DNA of 17,793 nt from Verrucomicrobiota bacterium (GTDB taxonomy: Bacteria; Verrucomicrobiota; Verrucomicrobiia; Limisphaerales; JADLHS01), in assembly GCA_025457745.1 (NCBI GenBank), contig JALOTT010000121.1, forward strand, positions 1 to 17,793, read 5' to 3'. The position numbers and the translations under genes were made by a program. Shown here in pieces: positions 256 to 17,793 of this stretch. Within the stretch, counting starts at the first letter, position 1, and every line of letters starts with the position of its first letter. The notes beneath the pieces were generated by a model, which saw only the letters and a list, made by a program, of their open reading frames with translations, was not told where the DNA came from and ran no database searches.

Positions 256-1353
256 ATGAAATGGTCACTCCGACTCGGCAGCATCGTCGGCATCAACGTC
301 TATATGCACTGGACGTTCCTCTTGCTCATCGGCTGGATCTTCTTCAGCCACCTCGCGCAAGGGCACAACGTCGCGATGGCCACGCGGGGCGCGGCGTTTA
401 TCATGGCCATCTTCGGCTGCGTCGTGCTTCATGAACTCGGACACGCGCTCGCGGCGCGGCGCTACGGCATCCGCACCCGCGACATCACGCTGCTGCCCAT
501 TGGCGGCGTCGCGCGGCTGGAGCGGATGCCGGAGAAACCCAAGCAGGAACTGGTCGTCGCGCTGGCCGGGCCGGCGGTGAACGTGGTCATTGCGGCGATT
601 CTCTTTGTGGTGCTCGCCGTCCTGGGCACGCTGGGGAATTTGCTCTCGCTCGAATTCGTCGGCGGCAGTTTCCTCGTCAACCTCATGAGCGTGAACGTGC
701 TGCTCGTGGTCTTCAATATGTTGCCCGCGTTTCCGATGGACGGTGGGCGGGTGTTGCGCGCGTTGCTGGCCACCCGGATGGATTACCGGCGTGCCACCGG
801 CATCGCGGCGTCGGTCGGCCAGGGCATGGCCATCCTGTTTGCGCTGGCCGGGCTGTTCGTTTTCAAGAACCCGTTCCTCCTTTTCATCGCGCTCTTTGTT
901 TTCCTCGGCGCGGCCAGCGAAGCGGAGACGGTCGGCGTGCAGCAAACACTGCGTGGCCAGTCGGTGCGCGACGCCATGCTCACGCGCTTTCGCACGCTGG
1001 CCGCCGAAGCGACGCTCGACGACGCAGTGCGTGAGTTGTTGGCGGGTTCGCAGCAGGATTTCCCGGTCATGTCCGGCGATGCGCTTGTAGGCATCCTGAT
1101 GAGGAACGATCTGGTCAAAGCCATCGCCGAAGGCGGCCGGCAAGCGCTCGTGAAAAGCGCCATGCGCCAGAACTGCGCCGTGGTTGAGGCGTCCGATCCG
1201 CTCCGCGCGGCGTTCGACAAGATTCGGCGGGGCGAGTGCTCCACGGTGCCGGTTTTGCAGGAGGGCCGGCTGGTGGGATTGCTCACGCTGGAAAACGTTG
1301 GCGAACTGGTAATGGTCAACGAGGCCAGCAGCCAGTTTGAAGGGAGGACCTGA
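256..1353 (+). CDS. Site-2 protease (peptidase M50) family zinc metalloprotease with C-terminal tandem CBS domains
   Basis: The HExxH zinc motif is present in a TM helix (VVLHELGHALAARRYG). The downstream M50 signature NMLPAFPMDGGRVLRALL is present, and the protein has multiple hydrophobic helices. The C-terminal ~130 aa resemble a CBS pair (QSVRDAMLTRF...FPVMSGDALVGILMRNDLVKA...VPVLQEGRLVGLLTLENV). Start chosen at ATG 256 (MKWSLRLGSIVGINVYMHWTFLLL, typical N-terminus of this family) rather than ATG 193. Confidence 0.85.
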   Translation: MKWSLRLGSIVGINVYMHWTFLLLIGWIFFSHLAQGHNVAMATRGAAFIMAIFGCVVLHELGHALAARRYGIRTRDITLLPIGGVARLERMPEKPKQELVVALAGPAVNVVIAAILFVVLAVLGTLGNLLSLEFVGGSFLVNLMSVNVLLVVFNMLPAFPMDGGRVLRALLATRMDYRRATGIAASVGQGMAILFALAGLFVFKNPFLLFIALFVFLGAASEAETVGVQQTLRGQSVRDAMLTRFRTLAAEATLDDAVRELLAGSQQDFPVMSGDALVGILMRNDLVKAIAEGGRQALVKSAMRQNCAVVEASDPLRAAFDKIRRGECSTVPVLQEGRLVGLLTLENVGELVMVNEASSQFEGRT

Positions 1354-1357
1354 AGGC

Positions 1358-2896
1358 ATGGCAACACAGAAAGGCATTCTTACGCGTCAGGCGCTCGGCG
1401 CGAAAACCGCCGTTGGCCGGCACGGCTTGCTAACGGCGCGCGAGCAAGAGAAACAATACCGGTTGCTGTTTCAGTTGAACCCTTGCCCGATGTGGATTTG
1501 CGATGAGAAAACCTTGGAGTTCCTCGCCGTGAATGAGGCGGCCTTGCGGCTGTATGGTTGTTCGCGCAAGAAATTCATGCGAATGACGGCCACGGACATT
1601 CGTCCGCCCGAGGATGTGCCCAAGTTTCTTCGCGCGATGGGCGGGCAGCGCAGATCGCGGGCGACGTTTGTCGGCGAGTGGCGTCACGTCAAGCGGGACG
1701 GCACGGTCTTTGACGTGGCTGTCACGATCAGCTCCATTCCTTACGCCGGACGCGCGGCCCGGCTGGTGTTGGTGGATGACATCACGGAACGCAAGCGGGC
1801 GGAGGAGCAAGTGAAGCAACTCACCGCCACGCTCGAACGCCGCGTGGCCGAACGAACCGACGAACTTCTGGATGCCAACGAGCGGCTGCGCGCCATCATG
1901 GACAACGCTTTGGTTGGGATACTCACCTTGAACGCGCATGGAGTGATCGAGTCCCTCAACCCGGCGGCCACGCTGATATTCGGCAACACGCCGGACGAAA
2001 TGCTGGGCCGCAACGTCAGCCGGTTTATGGCATCTCCGCAGCAGCTCAAGGGAGAGGAATTCCTCGCCCATTACCTCGAACCCGGTGACCAGCGCTCCAT
2101 GGGCGCGGGGCGCGAAGTCCTCGGCCGGCGAAAGGGCGGTCACGCGATCGTGATCGAGTTGACGGTGAGCGATTTCTCCCACACGGGACGCCGGGAATTC
2201 GTCGCGATGGTGCGCGACATCACGGTACGCAAGCGACTGGAGCGTGAGCTTTTGGAAATCAGCGAACGCGAGCAGCAGCGAATCGGGCGCGATTTGCACG
2301 ACGGGCTTGGCCAGCAACTGCACGGGCTTTCCTATCTGGCGGCGCTGCTGGAGAAGGGCCTCCAGGAAGAGGCTTCCTCCCGCGCCGCGGAGGCCGGCCA
2401 GTTGAACAAGTATCTGGATGAAGCCCTGGAACTGACGCGCGGCCTCGCGCATGGCTTGCAACCCGTCAAGGCCATGCCCCGGGGATTGATGATGGCACTC
2501 CGCGAACTGGCCGAACGCACGCGGGCGATGTATCGGGTGGATTGCCGCTTTGAATGTCGCGCGCCCGTGCTCATCCACCGGCACACCGCCGCCACGCACC
2601 TTTATCGCATCGCGCAGGAGGCTGTGAACAATGCCATGAAACACGCCAAACCCACGCGCGTCCGCATTAAGCTTGCGGCCACGGCGCAGCGGATCGTGCT
2701 CGGCGTCCGGGACAACGGCACTGGCATCCGTCATCGCAAAGCACCCGCGAGAGGCATGGGCCTGCACATCATGCAATACCGGGCCGATGCCATCAGAGGC
2801 ACACTGGCCGTCCAGAAACTTCCTGAACGCGGGACGGAAGTCGTATGCACCGTCAAGCGCCTCGCACTGCTCCCGCAAGAGAACCACACCCAATGA
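1358..2896 (+). CDS. Cytoplasmic sensor histidine kinase, two PAS domains + HisKA_3 dimerisation/H-box + HATPase_c (NarX/DevS-class kinase)
   Basis: H-box EREQQRIGRDLHDGLGQQL is typical of HisKA_3. The C-terminal ATPase region has the N-box AVNNAMKHA and the G-box DNGTGI. Two PAS-like segments are present (LLFQLNPCPMWICDEKTLEFLAVNEAALRLYG...; IMDNALVGILTLNAHGVIESLNPAATLIFG...). There is no TM segment. GGAGG RBS at 1342-1347 precedes ATG 1358. The stop (2894-2896) overlaps the start of the next gene (caATGAaa). Confidence 0.85.
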   Translation: MATQKGILTRQALGAKTAVGRHGLLTAREQEKQYRLLFQLNPCPMWICDEKTLEFLAVNEAALRLYGCSRKKFMRMTATDIRPPEDVPKFLRAMGGQRRSRATFVGEWRHVKRDGTVFDVAVTISSIPYAGRAARLVLVDDITERKRAEEQVKQLTATLERRVAERTDELLDANERLRAIMDNALVGILTLNAHGVIESLNPAATLIFGNTPDEMLGRNVSRFMASPQQLKGEEFLAHYLEPGDQRSMGAGREVLGRRKGGHAIVIELTVSDFSHTGRREFVAMVRDITVRKRLERELLEISEREQQRIGRDLHDGLGQQLHGLSYLAALLEKGLQEEASSRAAEAGQLNKYLDEALELTRGLAHGLQPVKAMPRGLMMALRELAERTRAMYRVDCRFECRAPVLIHRHTAATHLYRIAQEAVNNAMKHAKPTRVRIKLAATAQRIVLGVRDNGTGIRHRKAPARGMGLHIMQYRADAIRGTLAVQKLPERGTEVVCTVKRLALLPQENHTQ

Positions 2897-16742: not shown

Positions 16743-16766
16743 CGCCTGGCCACCGTCTCTGTTACC

Positions 16767-17793
16767 ATGAAAACAACGACCAACTTAGGAACGGACAGGG
16801 ACCCAATCCTGCGTAACCAAGGAGCAGTTGTTTCCGTGCGCGGCAGTGTCGTGGATGTCCGGTTCGATAATCAATTGCCGGCGATCTATTCGTTGTTGCA
16901 CGCGGGGAAAGACGATTGCATCGCCATCGAAGTGCTCGCGCAACTCGATGCGCAGCGCGTGCGCGGCATCGCGTTGACGCCCACGCAGGGCCTGGCGCGC
17001 GGCATGGTGGTTGAGGACACGGGCGGGCCGTTGACGGTGCCGGTCGGCAAGGGAATTCTTTCGCGCATGTTCGACGTGTTCGGCGACGCGATTGACCGCG
17101 AAGGGGACGTTTCGGACGTGGAGTGGCGCACCGTCCACCGCGCCCCGCCGCCGCTGACCCGGCGTTCCACCAAATCCGAGGTCTTTGAAACGGGAATCAA
17201 GGTGATTGATGTGCTCGTGCCGCTGGAGCGCGGCGGCAAGGCGGGCCTGTTCGGCGGGGCGGGCGTGGGCAAAACCGTTCTGCTCACCGAAATGATCCAC
17301 AACATGATCGGACACCACGAGGGGGTCAGTTTATTTTGTGGTATCGGCGAACGCTGTCGCGAAGGCGAGGAGCTTTACCGCGAGATGAAAGCCGCCGGTG
17401 TGCTGCCGAACATGGTGATGGTGTTCGGCCAGATGAACGAGCCGCCCGGCAGCCGGTTCCGCGTGGGCCACGCCGCGCTCACGATGGCCGAGTATTTCCG
17501 GGACGACGAGCGGCGCGATGTGCTGCTGCTCATTGATAACATTTTCCGATTTATCCAGGCTGGTTCCGAGGTGTCCGGTCTGATGGGGCAGATGCCGTCG
17601 CGCCTCGGTTATCAACCGACGATGGGCACGGAGTTGTCGCGCTTGGAGGAGCGGATCGCCAACACGGATACCGGCGCCATCACCTCCATCCAGGCGGTTT
17701 ATGTGCCGGCGGATGATTTCACCGATCCGGCAGCGGTGCATACCTTCGGCCATCTTTCGGCGTCAATCGTGCTTTCACGCAAGCGCGCGAGCG
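16767..17793 (+). CDS. atpD: ATP synthase F1 (or N-type) beta subunit, 5' partial (runs off right edge)
   Basis: It contains [26 protein letters not shown], the Walker [18 protein letters not shown], ...[14 protein letters not shown]...[33 protein letters not shown] (DELSEED-region upstream context). No stop is reached by 17793. It is missing from the supplied ORF track because it is open-ended. It is preceded by fba with a 24-nt gap, not by atpG. Confidence 0.9.

Follow-up and report, generated by a model that had tools for sequence, protein, structure and literature searches.

The 17,793-bp stretch of DNA analysed here (the window), which is an entire NCBI MAG contig of an uncultured Verrucomicrobiota bacterium, is on balance likely to be a stress or growth-arrest island, forming the regulon of the two-component system encoded at its head. 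A DosR-like regulon is probable, since three predicted promoters located behind the kinase-regulator pair share a phased array of palindromes, and no such regulon has been described so far in Verrucomicrobia.

Organisation of the window

The features of the window are collected in Table 1, where family assignments come from Pfam or NCBIfam profile searches. The single-strand run from 256 to the right edge (17793), claimed in an earlier note on this DNA, was confirmed, as all 25 supported genes lie on the + strand; the sole gene on the other strand is a divergent MscS-type channel gene which marks the left limit of the run, and the JGI contig L002, reaching further left, contains MS_channel Pfam families there. 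The minimal intergenic space also claimed is found from 7690 onward (gaps of at most 87 bp), but not in the left part, with gaps of 266, 115-169, 243, 123 and 251 bp. GC content ranges from 0.56 to 0.64 along the window, without a step. Nearly all the stress-type families listed earlier were recovered by Pfam; the ORF in the YqjK position has no Pfam match, and the thioredoxin-like protein lacks CxxC.

Table 1. Features of the window, with coordinates, strand and supporting evidence
Feature	Position	Strand	Evidence or detail
MscS-type mechanosensitive channel gene, 5' end	1-75	-	ATG at about 75, read from reverse-strand sequence
Membrane M50 (site-2-type) metalloprotease with tandem CBS pair	256-1353	+	Pfam Peptidase_M50 5.2e-26, CBS 5.5e-16
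Histidine kinase	1358-2896	+	Pfam PAS-PAS-HisKA_3-HATPase_c
NarL/FixJ-family response regulator, receiver and GerE HTH	2893-3591	+	Pfam Response_reg 1.3e-26, GerE 7.7e-19
Putative operator array 1	3687-3744		TCAGCAATTCGCTGG 3687-3701, TCGGCGTTTTGCTGA 3708-3722, degenerate third slot 3730-3744
Putative lone-receiver promoter	3746-3775	+	TTGTGG, 18 nt, TAGAGT; inferred
Stand-alone pseudo-receiver	3858-4301	+	Pfam Response_reg 2.1e-14
Putative operator array 2	4283-4340		TCGGCGACCGGCTGA 4283-4297, TCAGGCAATTGCTGA 4304-4318, degenerate third slot 4326-4340
Putative unk191 operon promoter	4341-4370	+	TTGTGT, 18 nt, TAGAGT; inferred
unk191, uncharacterised protein	4417-4992 (alternative start 4471)	+	
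Thioredoxin-fold (Trx-like) protein, degenerate active site	5049-5387	+	Pfam Thioredoxin 6.1e-24
Conserved structured element, two hairpins	5515-5590	+	Alignment
DUF883 (ElaB/YqjD-type) tail-anchored membrane protein	5631-5924	+	Pfam DUF883, DUF883_C
YqjE-type membrane protein (Phage_holin_3_6 / DUF1469)	5929-6315	+	Pfam 5.6e-13; two TM-like windows
Small membrane protein, YqjK position	6294-6614	+	No Pfam match
Stand-alone CBM48 / AMPK-beta-like glycogen-binding module	6665-6970	+	Pfam AMPK1_CBM 2.8e-13, CBM_48 2.7e-09
Divergent P-II-like protein (PII)	7094-7438	+	Pfam P-II 1.1e-12
Putative operator array 3	7479-7536		Weaker sites TCGGTCTTTACCTGA 7479, TCAGCGTTTCCCGGA 7500, TCCGCCCTTGGCCGA 7522
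Putative long Usp operon promoter	7537-7565	+	TAGCGT, 17 nt, TAACTT; inferred
First Usp	7690-8205	+	Pfam Usp 3.6e-32
Second Usp	8227-8754	+	Pfam Usp 1.6e-31
Third Usp	8741-9256	+	Pfam Usp 1.7e-34
Second DUF883 paralogue, joined in frame to the next	9260-9610	+	Pfam
Slipin/SPFH (Band_7) gene, 5'-truncated	9611-10261	+	Pfam
Usp4, N-terminal glycine-rich hydrophobic extension	10285-10926	+	Pfam Usp
TM156, single-pass membrane protein	10954-11424	+	No family match
Beta-CASP metallo-beta-lactamase ribonuclease (aCPSF1 / RNase J-like)	11464-12855	+	Pfam Beta-Casp 5.3e-38, RMMBL 3.1e-14; NCBIfam
Class I pyridine-nucleotide disulphide oxidoreductase (lipoamide dehydrogenase / MerA-like)	12852-14300	+	Pfam
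Dodecin	14310-14516	+	Pfam
DUF2934	14527-14814	+	Pfam
BON-domain protein, N-terminal anchor	14863-15369	+	Pfam, hydrophobicity
Small zinc-ribbon protein	15457-15672	+	
Class I fructose-bisphosphate aldolase (FBA)	15720-16742	+	Pfam Glycolytic 4.3e-137; NCBIfam FrucBisAld_I 515.8 bits
N-type (alternate F1F0) ATPase beta subunit, first 342 codons	16767-17793	+	TIGR03305

Operator arrays and putative promoters

Three arrays, each with three 15-bp slots for the palindrome TCAGC-N5-GCTGA at a spacing of 21-22 bp, lie 5' of the genes for the lone receiver, unk191 and the first Usp. Allowing at most one mismatch, six copies are present in the window against 0.69 expected (0/200 shuffles), four of them forming two pairs exactly 21 bp apart. 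Moreover, a weight matrix trained only on the sites of relatives detected four phased pairs (three arrays) in the window, all in its large intergenic regions, against 0.023 expected (0/300 dinucleotide shuffles); about 1.15 Mb of unrelated loci gave two weak pairs. The 17 arrays of eight related loci have a common layout: site, 6 nt, site, 7 nt, site and the hexamer T(T/G)G(T/C)(G/A)n, followed after 16-19 nt by TAnnnT in 14 of the 17. The analysis shows that the arrays are present, are not a product of chance and keep their position and geometry across loci.

The block of array 1 is conserved between the regulator and receiver genes of L129, L086, L130, L131, L132 and L133, and the hexamers and spacing of its promoter recur 3' of the arrays in relatives. 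Array 2 straddles the receiver stop codon, and in L129 and L130 the unk191 orthologue is likewise preceded by equivalent arrays. The weakness of the array 3 sites (9.5-11 bits), which head the large operon, counts against the regulon model; the array at the corresponding place 5' of the Usp1 orthologue of L128 is stronger, and the putative promoter there reads TGGCGT, 16 nt, TAAGTT. The shared NarL-type inverted repeat that the earlier note had predicted for six intergenic regions is present in 3592-3857, 4302-4416 and 7439-7689, but not upstream of the Trx-like, DUF883 and PII genes; in the window these three and the M50 gene have no array upstream, which also counts against the model.

As regards promoter layout, the DosR-like organisation proposed earlier is supported. 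DevR/DosR promoters have boxes with centres at -42.5 and -63.5, a primary site being paired with a degenerate secondary one (PMC3177182), and in the arrays of the window, too, palindromes follow one another at intervals of about two helical turns, mixing strong and degenerate sites, with the proximal site beside the -35 position. The motif itself was rejected as a DosR box, from which TCAGC-N5-GCTGA differs.

The two-component system and the proposed mechanism

The unit at the head of the run starts with the M50 gene, whose product has seven hydrophobic windows, followed after 4 nt by the kinase gene, which overlaps the regulator gene by 4 nt; in L132 an M50-CBS gene (84% identity) likewise lies 5' of the kinase. 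As none of its 19-residue hydrophobicity windows exceeds 1.34, the kinase is predicted to be soluble, in agreement with the earlier note; its sensors are PAS rather than GAF domains. Apart from the regulator, the window encodes no DNA-binding protein. The closest solved structures of the regulator are VraR, NarL and DevR, and more than 100 environmental protein clusters match it with 75-92% identity. The pseudo-receiver is a paralogue of the regulator's receiver domain in which Glu (VVSEIM) stands in place of the phospho-acceptor Asp and the acidic pocket has DR where DD is usual, both substitutions being identical in the aligned orthologues from L129-L132 and L086.

In the proposed mechanism the kinase would phosphorylate the regulator, as is established for these families. 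We infer that the regulator binds the arrays, its dimers doing so cooperatively on slots which, being 21-22 bp apart, would lie on one helix face; that binding activates, the array probably acting as a class II-type activator site because its proximal slot abuts a poor -35-like hexamer; and that each long run of genes is transcribed as one unit. The first promoter would serve the pseudo-receiver, probably a feedback modulator, and the second an operon of unk191, Trx-like, DUF883, YqjE, YqjK, CBM48 and PII genes. The third would drive an operon of at least 14 closely packed genes, 10 kb or more in length, which opens with three Usp genes, continues with slipin, Usp4, the beta-CASP RNase, the oxidoreductase, dodecin, BON and FBA, and passes into the N-ATPase operon.

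The nature of the signal

Energy or oxygen limitation (hypoxia) may be the signal. The best surviving alternative, which is tenable but somewhat less probable, is a general stress regulon (osmotic, desiccation, stationary phase), functionally analogous to the RpoS or sigma-B regulons and distinct from a hypoxia or dormancy programme, in which oxygen is not the signal. The second PAS domain of the kinase (residues ~176-301) is FixL-like, its best solved relatives being the haem-PAS domains of FixL and DosP, but the proximal haem-binding histidine is absent: His200 of BjFixL aligns to Gly in the window kinase and to Asp in that of L129. The redox/O2 sensing suggested earlier is therefore left without positive support. 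Furthermore, the sensor modules vary among orthologous islands (PAS-PAS, PAS-GAF-PAS, CheB/CheR-PAS), with regulator identity remaining at 80-92%, and related islands also hold trehalose and glycogen genes, MscS, HSP20, a CLC channel and P-type ATPases. In E. coli, ElaB/YqjD and OsmY/BON are stationary-phase or osmotic-stress proteins.

Against this alternative, more distant kinases of the same family retain the histidine and a complete FixL haem pocket, which makes an oxygen-sensing ancestry likely. Moreover, Usp-rich loci are induced by hypoxia in Mycobacterium (PMC3177182) and Burkholderia (PMC3721108), and the gene content of the window overlaps that of the hypoxia-induced lxa locus of B. 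cenocepacia, with six USPs, BON proteins, a metal-dependent RNase and a cation ATPase (PMC3721108).

Conservation and extent of the regulon

The gene order kinase, regulator, receiver, unk191, Trx-like, DUF883, YqjE, YqjK, CBM48, Usp recurs in several genomes. Ten genes keep the same order across L129, L130 and L132, where the regulator is 80-88% identical, and L124 re-clusters the same genes in a different order. Orthologues of the DUF883 protein (72-89% identical) occur in L129, L130, L132 and L087, those of the YqjK-position protein (40-66%) in L129, L130 and L124, the CBM48 gene in L124 and L129-L132, and the three Usp genes in L127, L128 and L130; Usp4 orthologues, of 213 aa, lie 3' of the slipin gene in L124 and L127. 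A tblastn search of related loci with the P-II-like gene gave no match. Since L133 has the kinase-regulator-receiver-unk module alone, without stress genes, physical consolidation is not universal.

Conservation of the island holds for this left half, from the kinase to CBM48 and the Usp genes, and not for the right half (beta-CASP to N-ATPase), which was accompanied by neither arrays nor the two-component system in any relative examined. The evidence suggesting that the right half belongs to the regulon is its short intergenic gaps. An alternative that we regard as unlikely restricts the regulon to the left part (receiver, unk191 to PII, perhaps Usp-slipin-Usp4), the genes from TM156/beta-CASP to FBA/N-ATPase being an unrelated housekeeping or laterally acquired block on the same strand. 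It would explain why, in 80 beta-CASP-anchored loci, TM156, the oxidoreductase and dodecin are the only genes recurring beside beta-CASP, Usp genes are confined to L013, an orthologous two-component system is missing and arrays are almost absent, and why the island stops after Usp4 in L127 and L132. The N-ATPase beta gene, found in no other fetched locus, scores 639.7 bits with TIGR03305, of whose 449 positions the match covers 324, and 449.3 with TIGR01039, the model for ordinary atpD; it lies 24 nt 3' of the FBA gene and was absent from the earlier note. N-ATPase operons, of the atpDCQRBEFAG type with the beta gene first, are known to undergo lateral transfer as whole units (PMC2881411). However, the gaps between Usp4 and AtpD are of 9-87 nt, with some genes overlapping, and no convincing terminator or promoter was found between them; TM156, whose orthologues adjoin beta-CASP in L004, lies inside the island, next to CBM48, in L124 and L130, and the lxa locus too combines its RNase and BON proteins with a cation ATPase (PMC3721108). 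TM156 had no match in Pfam or NCBIfam family searches, and the oxidoreductase scores below all equivalog cut-offs.

Decidedly less probable is that the arrays are real and the genes co-regulated, but by a factor encoded elsewhere, the adjoining NarL-type regulator controlling something else. The M50-kinase-regulator unit itself has no upstream array, and the four arrays of L128, located 5' of Usp but also of HSP20 and MscS-like genes, have no orthologous regulator within 10 kb (20 kb read), which fits a regulon acting in trans. On the other hand, an array lies directly 3' of the regulator gene in all seven regulator-bearing loci with sequence there (window, L086, L129, L130, L131, L132, L133), and more distant regulator homologues (43-57% identity) have no arrays around them except for one marginal pair in L091. 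Judging by NarL, RcsB and DosR sites, a 15-bp palindrome fits a GerE-type dimer, and neither the window nor the conserved core encodes any other DNA-binding domain. Finally, coincidental adjacency of ordinary, independently regulated genes is very unlikely: long same-strand runs occur in bacteria and several of the gene families are common, but phased arrays shared by three promoters, the conserved ten-gene order and the re-clustering in L124 speak against it.

Other features of the window

The DUF883-SPFH fusion described earlier could not be upheld, as the ORF 9260-10261 appears to span an assembly junction at 9610|9611 or a deletion of ~0.2 kb. L002 ends at 9610, L001 has 138 nt of the normal slipin 5' end that are absent from the window, DUF883 and slipin are separate adjacent genes in L127, and the NCBI annotation calls only a 240-aa slipin within this ORF. 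The junction falls inside the proposed long operon, a point which counts against the regulon model.

The Trx-like protein was rejected as a CxxC thioredoxin, having WSDPC in place of WCGPC (WSDPC, WSELC or ASEVS in orthologues) and scoring 90.9, below the TIGR01068 cut-off of 96.8. In unk191 the N-terminal domain is flavodoxin-like; the protein also has a disordered tail, and its C-terminal WGINE is nearly invariant. The structured element between the Trx-like and DUF883 genes has no match in Rfam; RNAalifold predicts 26 pairs for it, 10 of them with compensatory changes.

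Gene content of the window

Listing of ORFs, together with Pfam and NCBIfam scans, gave 25 genes, every one on the + strand, from position 256 to the edge, with a divergent MscS gene on the left. The gene inventory of the earlier note proved essentially right, as did its single-strand gene run; the minimal intergenic space that it had described holds from position 7690 onward, where gaps are of at most 87 bp, but not in the left part, which has five gaps of 115-266 bp. The window makes up the whole of a 17,793-bp contig in an NCBI MAG, on which the slipin MCU0784210.1 is recorded. 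Two contigs of JGI sample 3300037461 (L001 and L002) span nearly the whole window with >99.9% identity, and the relatives of the beta-CASP gene are Verrucomicrobiota MAGs almost throughout. Rfam and tRNA scans of the whole window produced no match, a sigma-70 consensus scan produced 1 match against 3.1 expected, and terminator-like sites were not above chance.

Features of the window and their positions (genes numbered in order)
Feature	Position	Strand
MscS gene, divergent	ends ~75	
CGTGACTGTGAAA	202-214	
1, M50-CBS protease		+
2, PAS-PAS-HisKA_3 kinase	1358-2896	+
PAS2 of kinase (residues 176-301)	1883-2260	+
3, NarL-type regulator	2893-3591	+
Repeat GCACGTG-ACTC-GCACGTG	3664-3684	
Array 1	3687/3708	
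Inverted repeat CTTCAAAAC..GGTTTGAAG	3834-3857	
4, lone receiver	3858-4301	+
Array 2	4283/4304	
GTCGTAACTGTG	4377-4388	
5, unk191 (191 aa)	4417-4992	+
6, thioredoxin-fold protein	5049-5387	+
76-aa ORF (rejected)	5375-5605	
Gap of 243 bp	5388-5630	
Two-hairpin element	5515-5590	
7, DUF883		+
8, YqjE-type		+
9, small membrane protein		+
10, CBM48		+
11, P-II-like protein		+
GTCGTAACTGTG, inverted	7444-7455	-
Array 3	7479/7500/7522	
12-14, three Usp		+
15, DUF883-slipin ORF	9260-10261	+
Putative assembly junction	9610|9611	
16, fourth Usp		+
17, TM156 membrane protein	10954-11424	+
18, beta-CASP RNase		+
19, disulphide oxidoreductase		+
20, dodecin		+
21, DUF2934		+
22, BON protein		+
23, zinc-ribbon protein		+
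24, class I aldolase		+
25, N-type ATPase beta subunit (edge-cut)	16767-17793	+

Some assignments had to be corrected. The thioredoxin-fold protein, listed before as Trx-like, scores 90.9 against TIGR01068, below the cut-off of 96.8, and has WSDPC instead of WCGPC, while its orthologues show WSDPC, WSELC or ASEVS (the last, in the related locus L132, without any cysteine there), so that it is not a redox protein of the CxxC type. As regards the ElaB-YqjE-YqjK set, DUF883 followed by DUF1469 (Phage_holin_3_6) was found, but the third ORF, although conserved and membrane-spanning, matches no Pfam family. The last gene reaches 639.7 bits with TIGR03305 over 324 of 449 positions, compared with 449.3 for ordinary atpD (TIGR01039); the former score falls short of 752, the cut-off for a full-length protein, since the edge cuts the gene after 342 codons. 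Moreover, this N-ATPase beta gene is the first of its operon, as is known for N-ATPase operons (atpDCQRBEFAG), the alternate-ATPase model being preferred. It starts 24 nt after the aldolase gene; the contig stops inside it, and L001 earlier still. Further marks of an N-ATPase, namely atpR (the defining subunit) and atpQ, the lack of a delta subunit and a second Glu in the c subunit, would lie beyond the contig end. No other fetched locus contains an N-ATPase, and no such enzyme directly behind a Usp/BON/FBA operon was found in the literature searched.

Phased operator arrays

The search for k-mers and inverted repeats shared across the intergenic regions of the window gave the leads CTTCAGCAATT and GTCGTAACTGTG, and no clear operator. 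The operator came to light when the intergenic region between regulator and receiver was aligned with its counterparts in three related loci (L086, L087 and L129), which share the conserved block TCAGCAATTnGCTGA with the window. With up to one mismatch, TCAGC-N5-GCTGA is present six times in the window against 0.69 expected (0/200 shuffles); four of the six sites form two pairs exactly 21 bp apart, and pairs as close as these are confined to related islands in the 1.54 Mb of DNA fetched. A weight matrix added a third, weaker array upstream of the first Usp gene. When a non-circular matrix was built of 17 sites, solely from L086, L128 and L129, the same four phased pairs (three arrays) were recovered in the window against 0.023 expected, and none of 300 dinucleotide shuffles reached four pairs, the maximum being one; about 1.15 Mb of non-island loci held two weak pairs. 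The earlier note had predicted a shared inverted-repeat operator in six intergenic regions, and the three arrays, non-random and conserved in relatives, bear this out for three of them.

The 17 arrays known from eight distinct loci have a single layout (site, 6 nt, site, 7 nt, site), with a spacing of 21-22 bp. Directly 3' of each of them lies a T(T/G)G(T/C)(G/A)n hexamer, and 14 of the 17 also have a TAnnnT hexamer 16-19 nt beyond this -35-like hexamer; by eye, no good GG-N10-GC match to a sigma-54 promoter is found 3' of the arrays. The genes behind the arrays include the lone receiver in seven of seven loci, unk191 (an uncharacterised protein with a flavodoxin-like N-terminal domain and a C-terminal WGINE) in three loci and Usp1 in two, as well as HSP20, an MscS-like protein, a second DUF883 and two genes of unknown function.

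Other repeats lie in intergenic regions. The repeat GCACGTG-ACTC-GCACGTG is immediately upstream of array 1, and an inverted repeat ends at the receiver start codon. One copy of the 12-mer GTCGTAACTGTG lies a short way 3' of the putative unk191 promoter and an inverted copy directly past the PII stop codon, and the related CGTGACTGTGAAA is upstream of the M50 gene.

Conservation of the island

Conservation of the island was found for its left half (kinase to CBM48 and the Usp genes), which is syntenic in relatives, but not for its right half (beta-CASP to N-ATPase). With beta-CASP as anchor, 185,579 species genomes were searched and 80 loci obtained, in which the recurring neighbours are only TM156, the oxidoreductase and dodecin; Usp genes are present in one of the 80 (L013), and the orthologous two-component system in none. 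By itself this resembled the outcome that the earlier note had named as refuting its reading, but Usp4 and regulator anchors recover the conserved left half. Beta-CASP and dodecin belong to a small module which is conserved independently of the island: in the closest relatives (L004, L005 and L007) the RNase adjoins dodecin, in L007 with a disulphide oxidoreductase between them, like in the window.

Islands in related loci
Locus	Identity or anchor	Arrays	Genes
L130	regulator 88%	two	kinase, regulator, receiver, unk191, Trx-like, small ORF, DUF883, YqjE, YqjK, CBM48, TM156, Usp2, Usp3
L129	regulator 81%		L130-type core and HSP20, then second DUF883, Usp4, trehalose genes, P-type ATPases
L132	regulator 80%	one	M50-CBS, kinase, regulator, receiver, unk, Trx-like, DUF883, CBM48, Usp4, trehalose synthase
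L131	regulator 84%	two	head module, unk191, CBM48, FtsH, STAS protein, M50/P-type ATPase gene
L133	regulator 81%	one	kinase, regulator, receiver, unk only; then unrelated genes
L127	slipin/Usp4 anchor		Usp3, DUF883b, slipin, Usp4
L128	slipin/Usp4 anchor		Usp1, Usp3, DUF883b, Usp4; MscS, HSP20, CLC, M50 genes near
L124	slipin/Usp4 anchor; ~87% nucleotide identity		reordered: YqjE, YqjK, CBM48, TM156, Usp, slipin, Usp4

The left half is a conserved syntenic core with variable cargo of the stress type, and the loci fetched later with the regulator as anchor (L130 to L133) carry arrays too. The right half, as far as the data reach, is peculiar to this organism. The islands of L127, L128, L129 and L132 adjoin or contain GH57, GH15, alpha-amylases, TreT, trehalose phosphatase and GH65; such glycogen and trehalose neighbours may explain the stand-alone CBM48 of the conserved core.

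Kinase, signal and pseudo-receiver

Pfam assigns HisKA_3 and HATPase_c to the kinase, and Response_reg and GerE to the regulator, which is matched by DevR (3c3w) at 3.2e-27, DevR being among its closest solved relatives. As described in the earlier note, the sensor domains of the kinase are PAS only, with no GAF in Pfam; with the proximal haem histidine absent, the sequence gives no positive sign of the redox/O2 sensing proposed there. The second PAS domain is closest to the haem-PAS domains of FixL and DosP, and in an ungapped alignment the proximal His200 of BjFixL (F-alpha helix) is replaced by Gly in the window and by Asp in L129; haem sensing by this kinase was therefore rejected as unproven. 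The more distant kinases of L089, L091, L093 and L098 retain the proximal histidine and the full FixL pocket signature, which makes an oxygen-sensing ancestry plausible on sequence grounds. Two other histidines of this domain, in FLAHY and GGHAIV, are common to the window and L129 and absent from the haem-type relatives.

The sensor part varies by locus (PAS-PAS, PAS-GAF-PAS, CheB/CheR-PAS), while the regulator is 80-92% identical throughout. Since sensor modules differ between species, the regulon may integrate different inputs, and a general stress or energy-limitation programme is just as likely as a hypoxia-specific one. The kinases of L129, L130, L131 and L133 are PAS-GAF-PAS, or have a CheB-CheR-PAS protein fused or adjacent.

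In all six orthologues aligned, the lone receiver has Glu instead of the phospho-acceptor Asp (VVSEIM) and DR instead of the acidic DD, which marks it as a conserved pseudo-receiver; it has kept its Ser/Thr and Lys positions. In every case the pseudo-receiver gene comes first after an operator array, and this constant place suggests a feedback encoded by the regulon on the two-component system.

Proposed mechanism and reach of the regulon

Neither the window nor the conserved core encodes any DNA-binding protein other than the NarL-type regulator, and an array is always found just downstream of its gene; hence, we infer that the regulator binds the arrays. If TAnnnT is taken as the -10 hexamer, from which the start sites were deduced, the three slots of an array would be centred near -43, -65 and -86, the geometry expected for a class II activator with helper sites that share its helical face, and the poor -35 hexamers would fit class II activation by the array. 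Three arrays could suffice to control everything downstream of the regulator: a first unit would consist of the pseudo-receiver alone, a second would extend from unk191 to PII, and a third would start at Usp1 and continue, tightly packed, into the N-ATPase operon. Judging by gene spacing, these long runs are presumably single transcripts; activation by array binding, the operon extents and the signal are likewise put forward as proposals.

The regulator is 75-92% identical across >100 environmental protein clusters. A wider reading, which we put forward tentatively and regard as rather doubtful when all its parts are taken jointly, would make it the master of a growth-arrest/general-stress regulon across a large Verrucomicrobiota lineage. 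In this joint reading the regulator would act through an operator not described before, in which TCAGC-N5-GCTGA triplets with a phase of 21-22 bp are joined to the -35, and kinases (PAS, GAF and CheB/CheR fusions, and FixL-derived PAS with or without the haem histidine) would be interchangeable from species to species. The Asp-to-Glu pseudo-receiver and the flavodoxin-like protein with the WGINE tail, both encoded by the regulon, would together act as its own feedback module, and the programme would reach, in this organism, the beta-CASP RNase, class I aldolase and N-type ATPase. If true, this would link glycolytic ATP with the pumping of ions in the arrested state.

Comparison with known systems

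The DevR/DosR-DosS/DosT system of M. tuberculosis has, like the window, a HisKA_3 kinase, a NarL-family regulator and a Usp-rich regulon, and the likeness extends to HSP20, trehalose genes and cation ATPases, which are carried by relatives of the window. For DevR/DosR promoters, experiments have shown 2-4 tandem palindromic boxes about 21 bp apart, centred at -42.5 (the proximal box) and -63.5, whose helical phase is required and along which binding spreads cooperatively from a primary site that is conserved to secondary ones that are degenerate (PMC3177182). The window arrays share this architecture, namely phased tandem palindromes, a proximal slot adjacent to the -35 and a combination of conserved and degenerate sites. 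However, the DosR box (18-20 bp, GGGAC..GTCCC) differs from the 15-bp TCAGC-N5-GCTGA, the phyla are different, and the DosS/DosT sensors are haem-GAF whereas the window kinase is PAS with no haem ligand evident. The window, unlike DosR, also has an extra pseudo-receiver and the unk191 gene, with many genes consolidated into putative long operons. Induction by hypoxia, NO or CO and a part in the survival of non-replicating cells characterise the DosR regulon.

Physical consolidation is the feature shared with the lxa (low-oxygen-activated) locus of Burkholderia cenocepacia, a co-regulated cluster with six USPs, BON ('phospholipid-binding') proteins, a metal-dependent RNase, an sHSP, a cation ATPase, a Zn protease and embedded two-component systems, in which an inverted-repeat motif common to many intergenic points, the Fnr/Anr-like TGA-N6-TCA, points to a CRP/FNR regulator (PMC3721108). 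The overlap in gene content is partial, and the candidate regulator of the window is of the NarL and not of the CRP/FNR type. As the DosR box GGGAC-N4-GTCCC is not enriched (at up to two mismatches, 7 against 10.7 expected, none in noteworthy promoter regions), the sensors are PAS and not GAF, and the FNR/Anr box TTGAT-N4-ATCAA is not convincingly enriched (9 against 4.6 expected, mostly inside genes), the island belongs neither to the DosR regulon nor to the lxa kind.

With FixL-FixJ the window shares a FixL-like second PAS domain and a regulator of the receiver and GerE architecture of FixJ; it differs in having HisKA_3 instead of HisKA, Gly instead of the proximal histidine, and target genes unrelated to nitrogen fixation or respiration. 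Furthermore, DUF883, YqjE-type and small membrane protein genes follow the same order as in the E. coli yqjD-yqjE-yqjK cluster, ElaB and YqjD being membrane proteins of the stationary phase there. The latter is under RpoS; in the window the third gene has no YqjK match and regulation would be by the candidate operator arrays.

The earlier note had seen a DosR-regulon-like stress island. Regulator family, promoter architecture and Usp richness agree with this, but the DosR box, the GAF sensors and the right half do not; this interpretation is partly supported. The island is best read as a probable stress regulon of DosR-like build under a NarL-type regulator, for which both the operator and the phylum are new. 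No description of a DosR-like regulon in Verrucomicrobia was found in the literature searched. Verrucomicrobiota are abundant in soils, waters and guts, and to our knowledge almost nothing is known about the regulation of their stress survival. If the model is right, an uncultured lineage would gain a defined operator, a candidate for its master regulator and a first list of regulon members. The model would also provide an independent example of DosR-style phased tandem-box promoters and two uncharacterised regulatory parts (the pseudo-receiver and the WGINE-tailed flavodoxin-like protein), and would place the N-type ATPase, which is poorly understood, in a physiological context.

A structured element and a putative assembly junction

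The gap between the Trx-like and DUF883 genes contains a conserved structured element with two hairpins, and no recognisable promoter. Compensatory changes in L087, L129, L130 and L132 maintain the hairpins, which have no Rfam match. Gene callers put an ORF of 74-85 aa over the element with weak protein conservation, and the 76-aa ORF of the window was rejected as a gene, its similarity to the counterpart protein being weak and a structured nucleotide element explaining the conservation better. The element may act as a leader, or in processing or stability.

Finally, the apparent DUF883-SPFH fusion is suspect, being seen in this contig alone. L002 stops exactly at window position 9610, L001 equals the window from 9611 on and has in addition 138 nt of a normal slipin 5' end missing in the window, and relatives have separate neighbouring genes for the DUF883 paralogue and for a slipin of normal length (261-265 aa); therefore, the window either lacks about 0.2 kb by deletion or was mis-joined at this point. 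The fused 333-aa product has no second occurrence in the protein collection, and what looks like a gene fusion in the deposited sequence probably reflects faulty assembly or a variant with a deletion. The NCBI annotation at this ORF is a truncated slipin of 240 aa.
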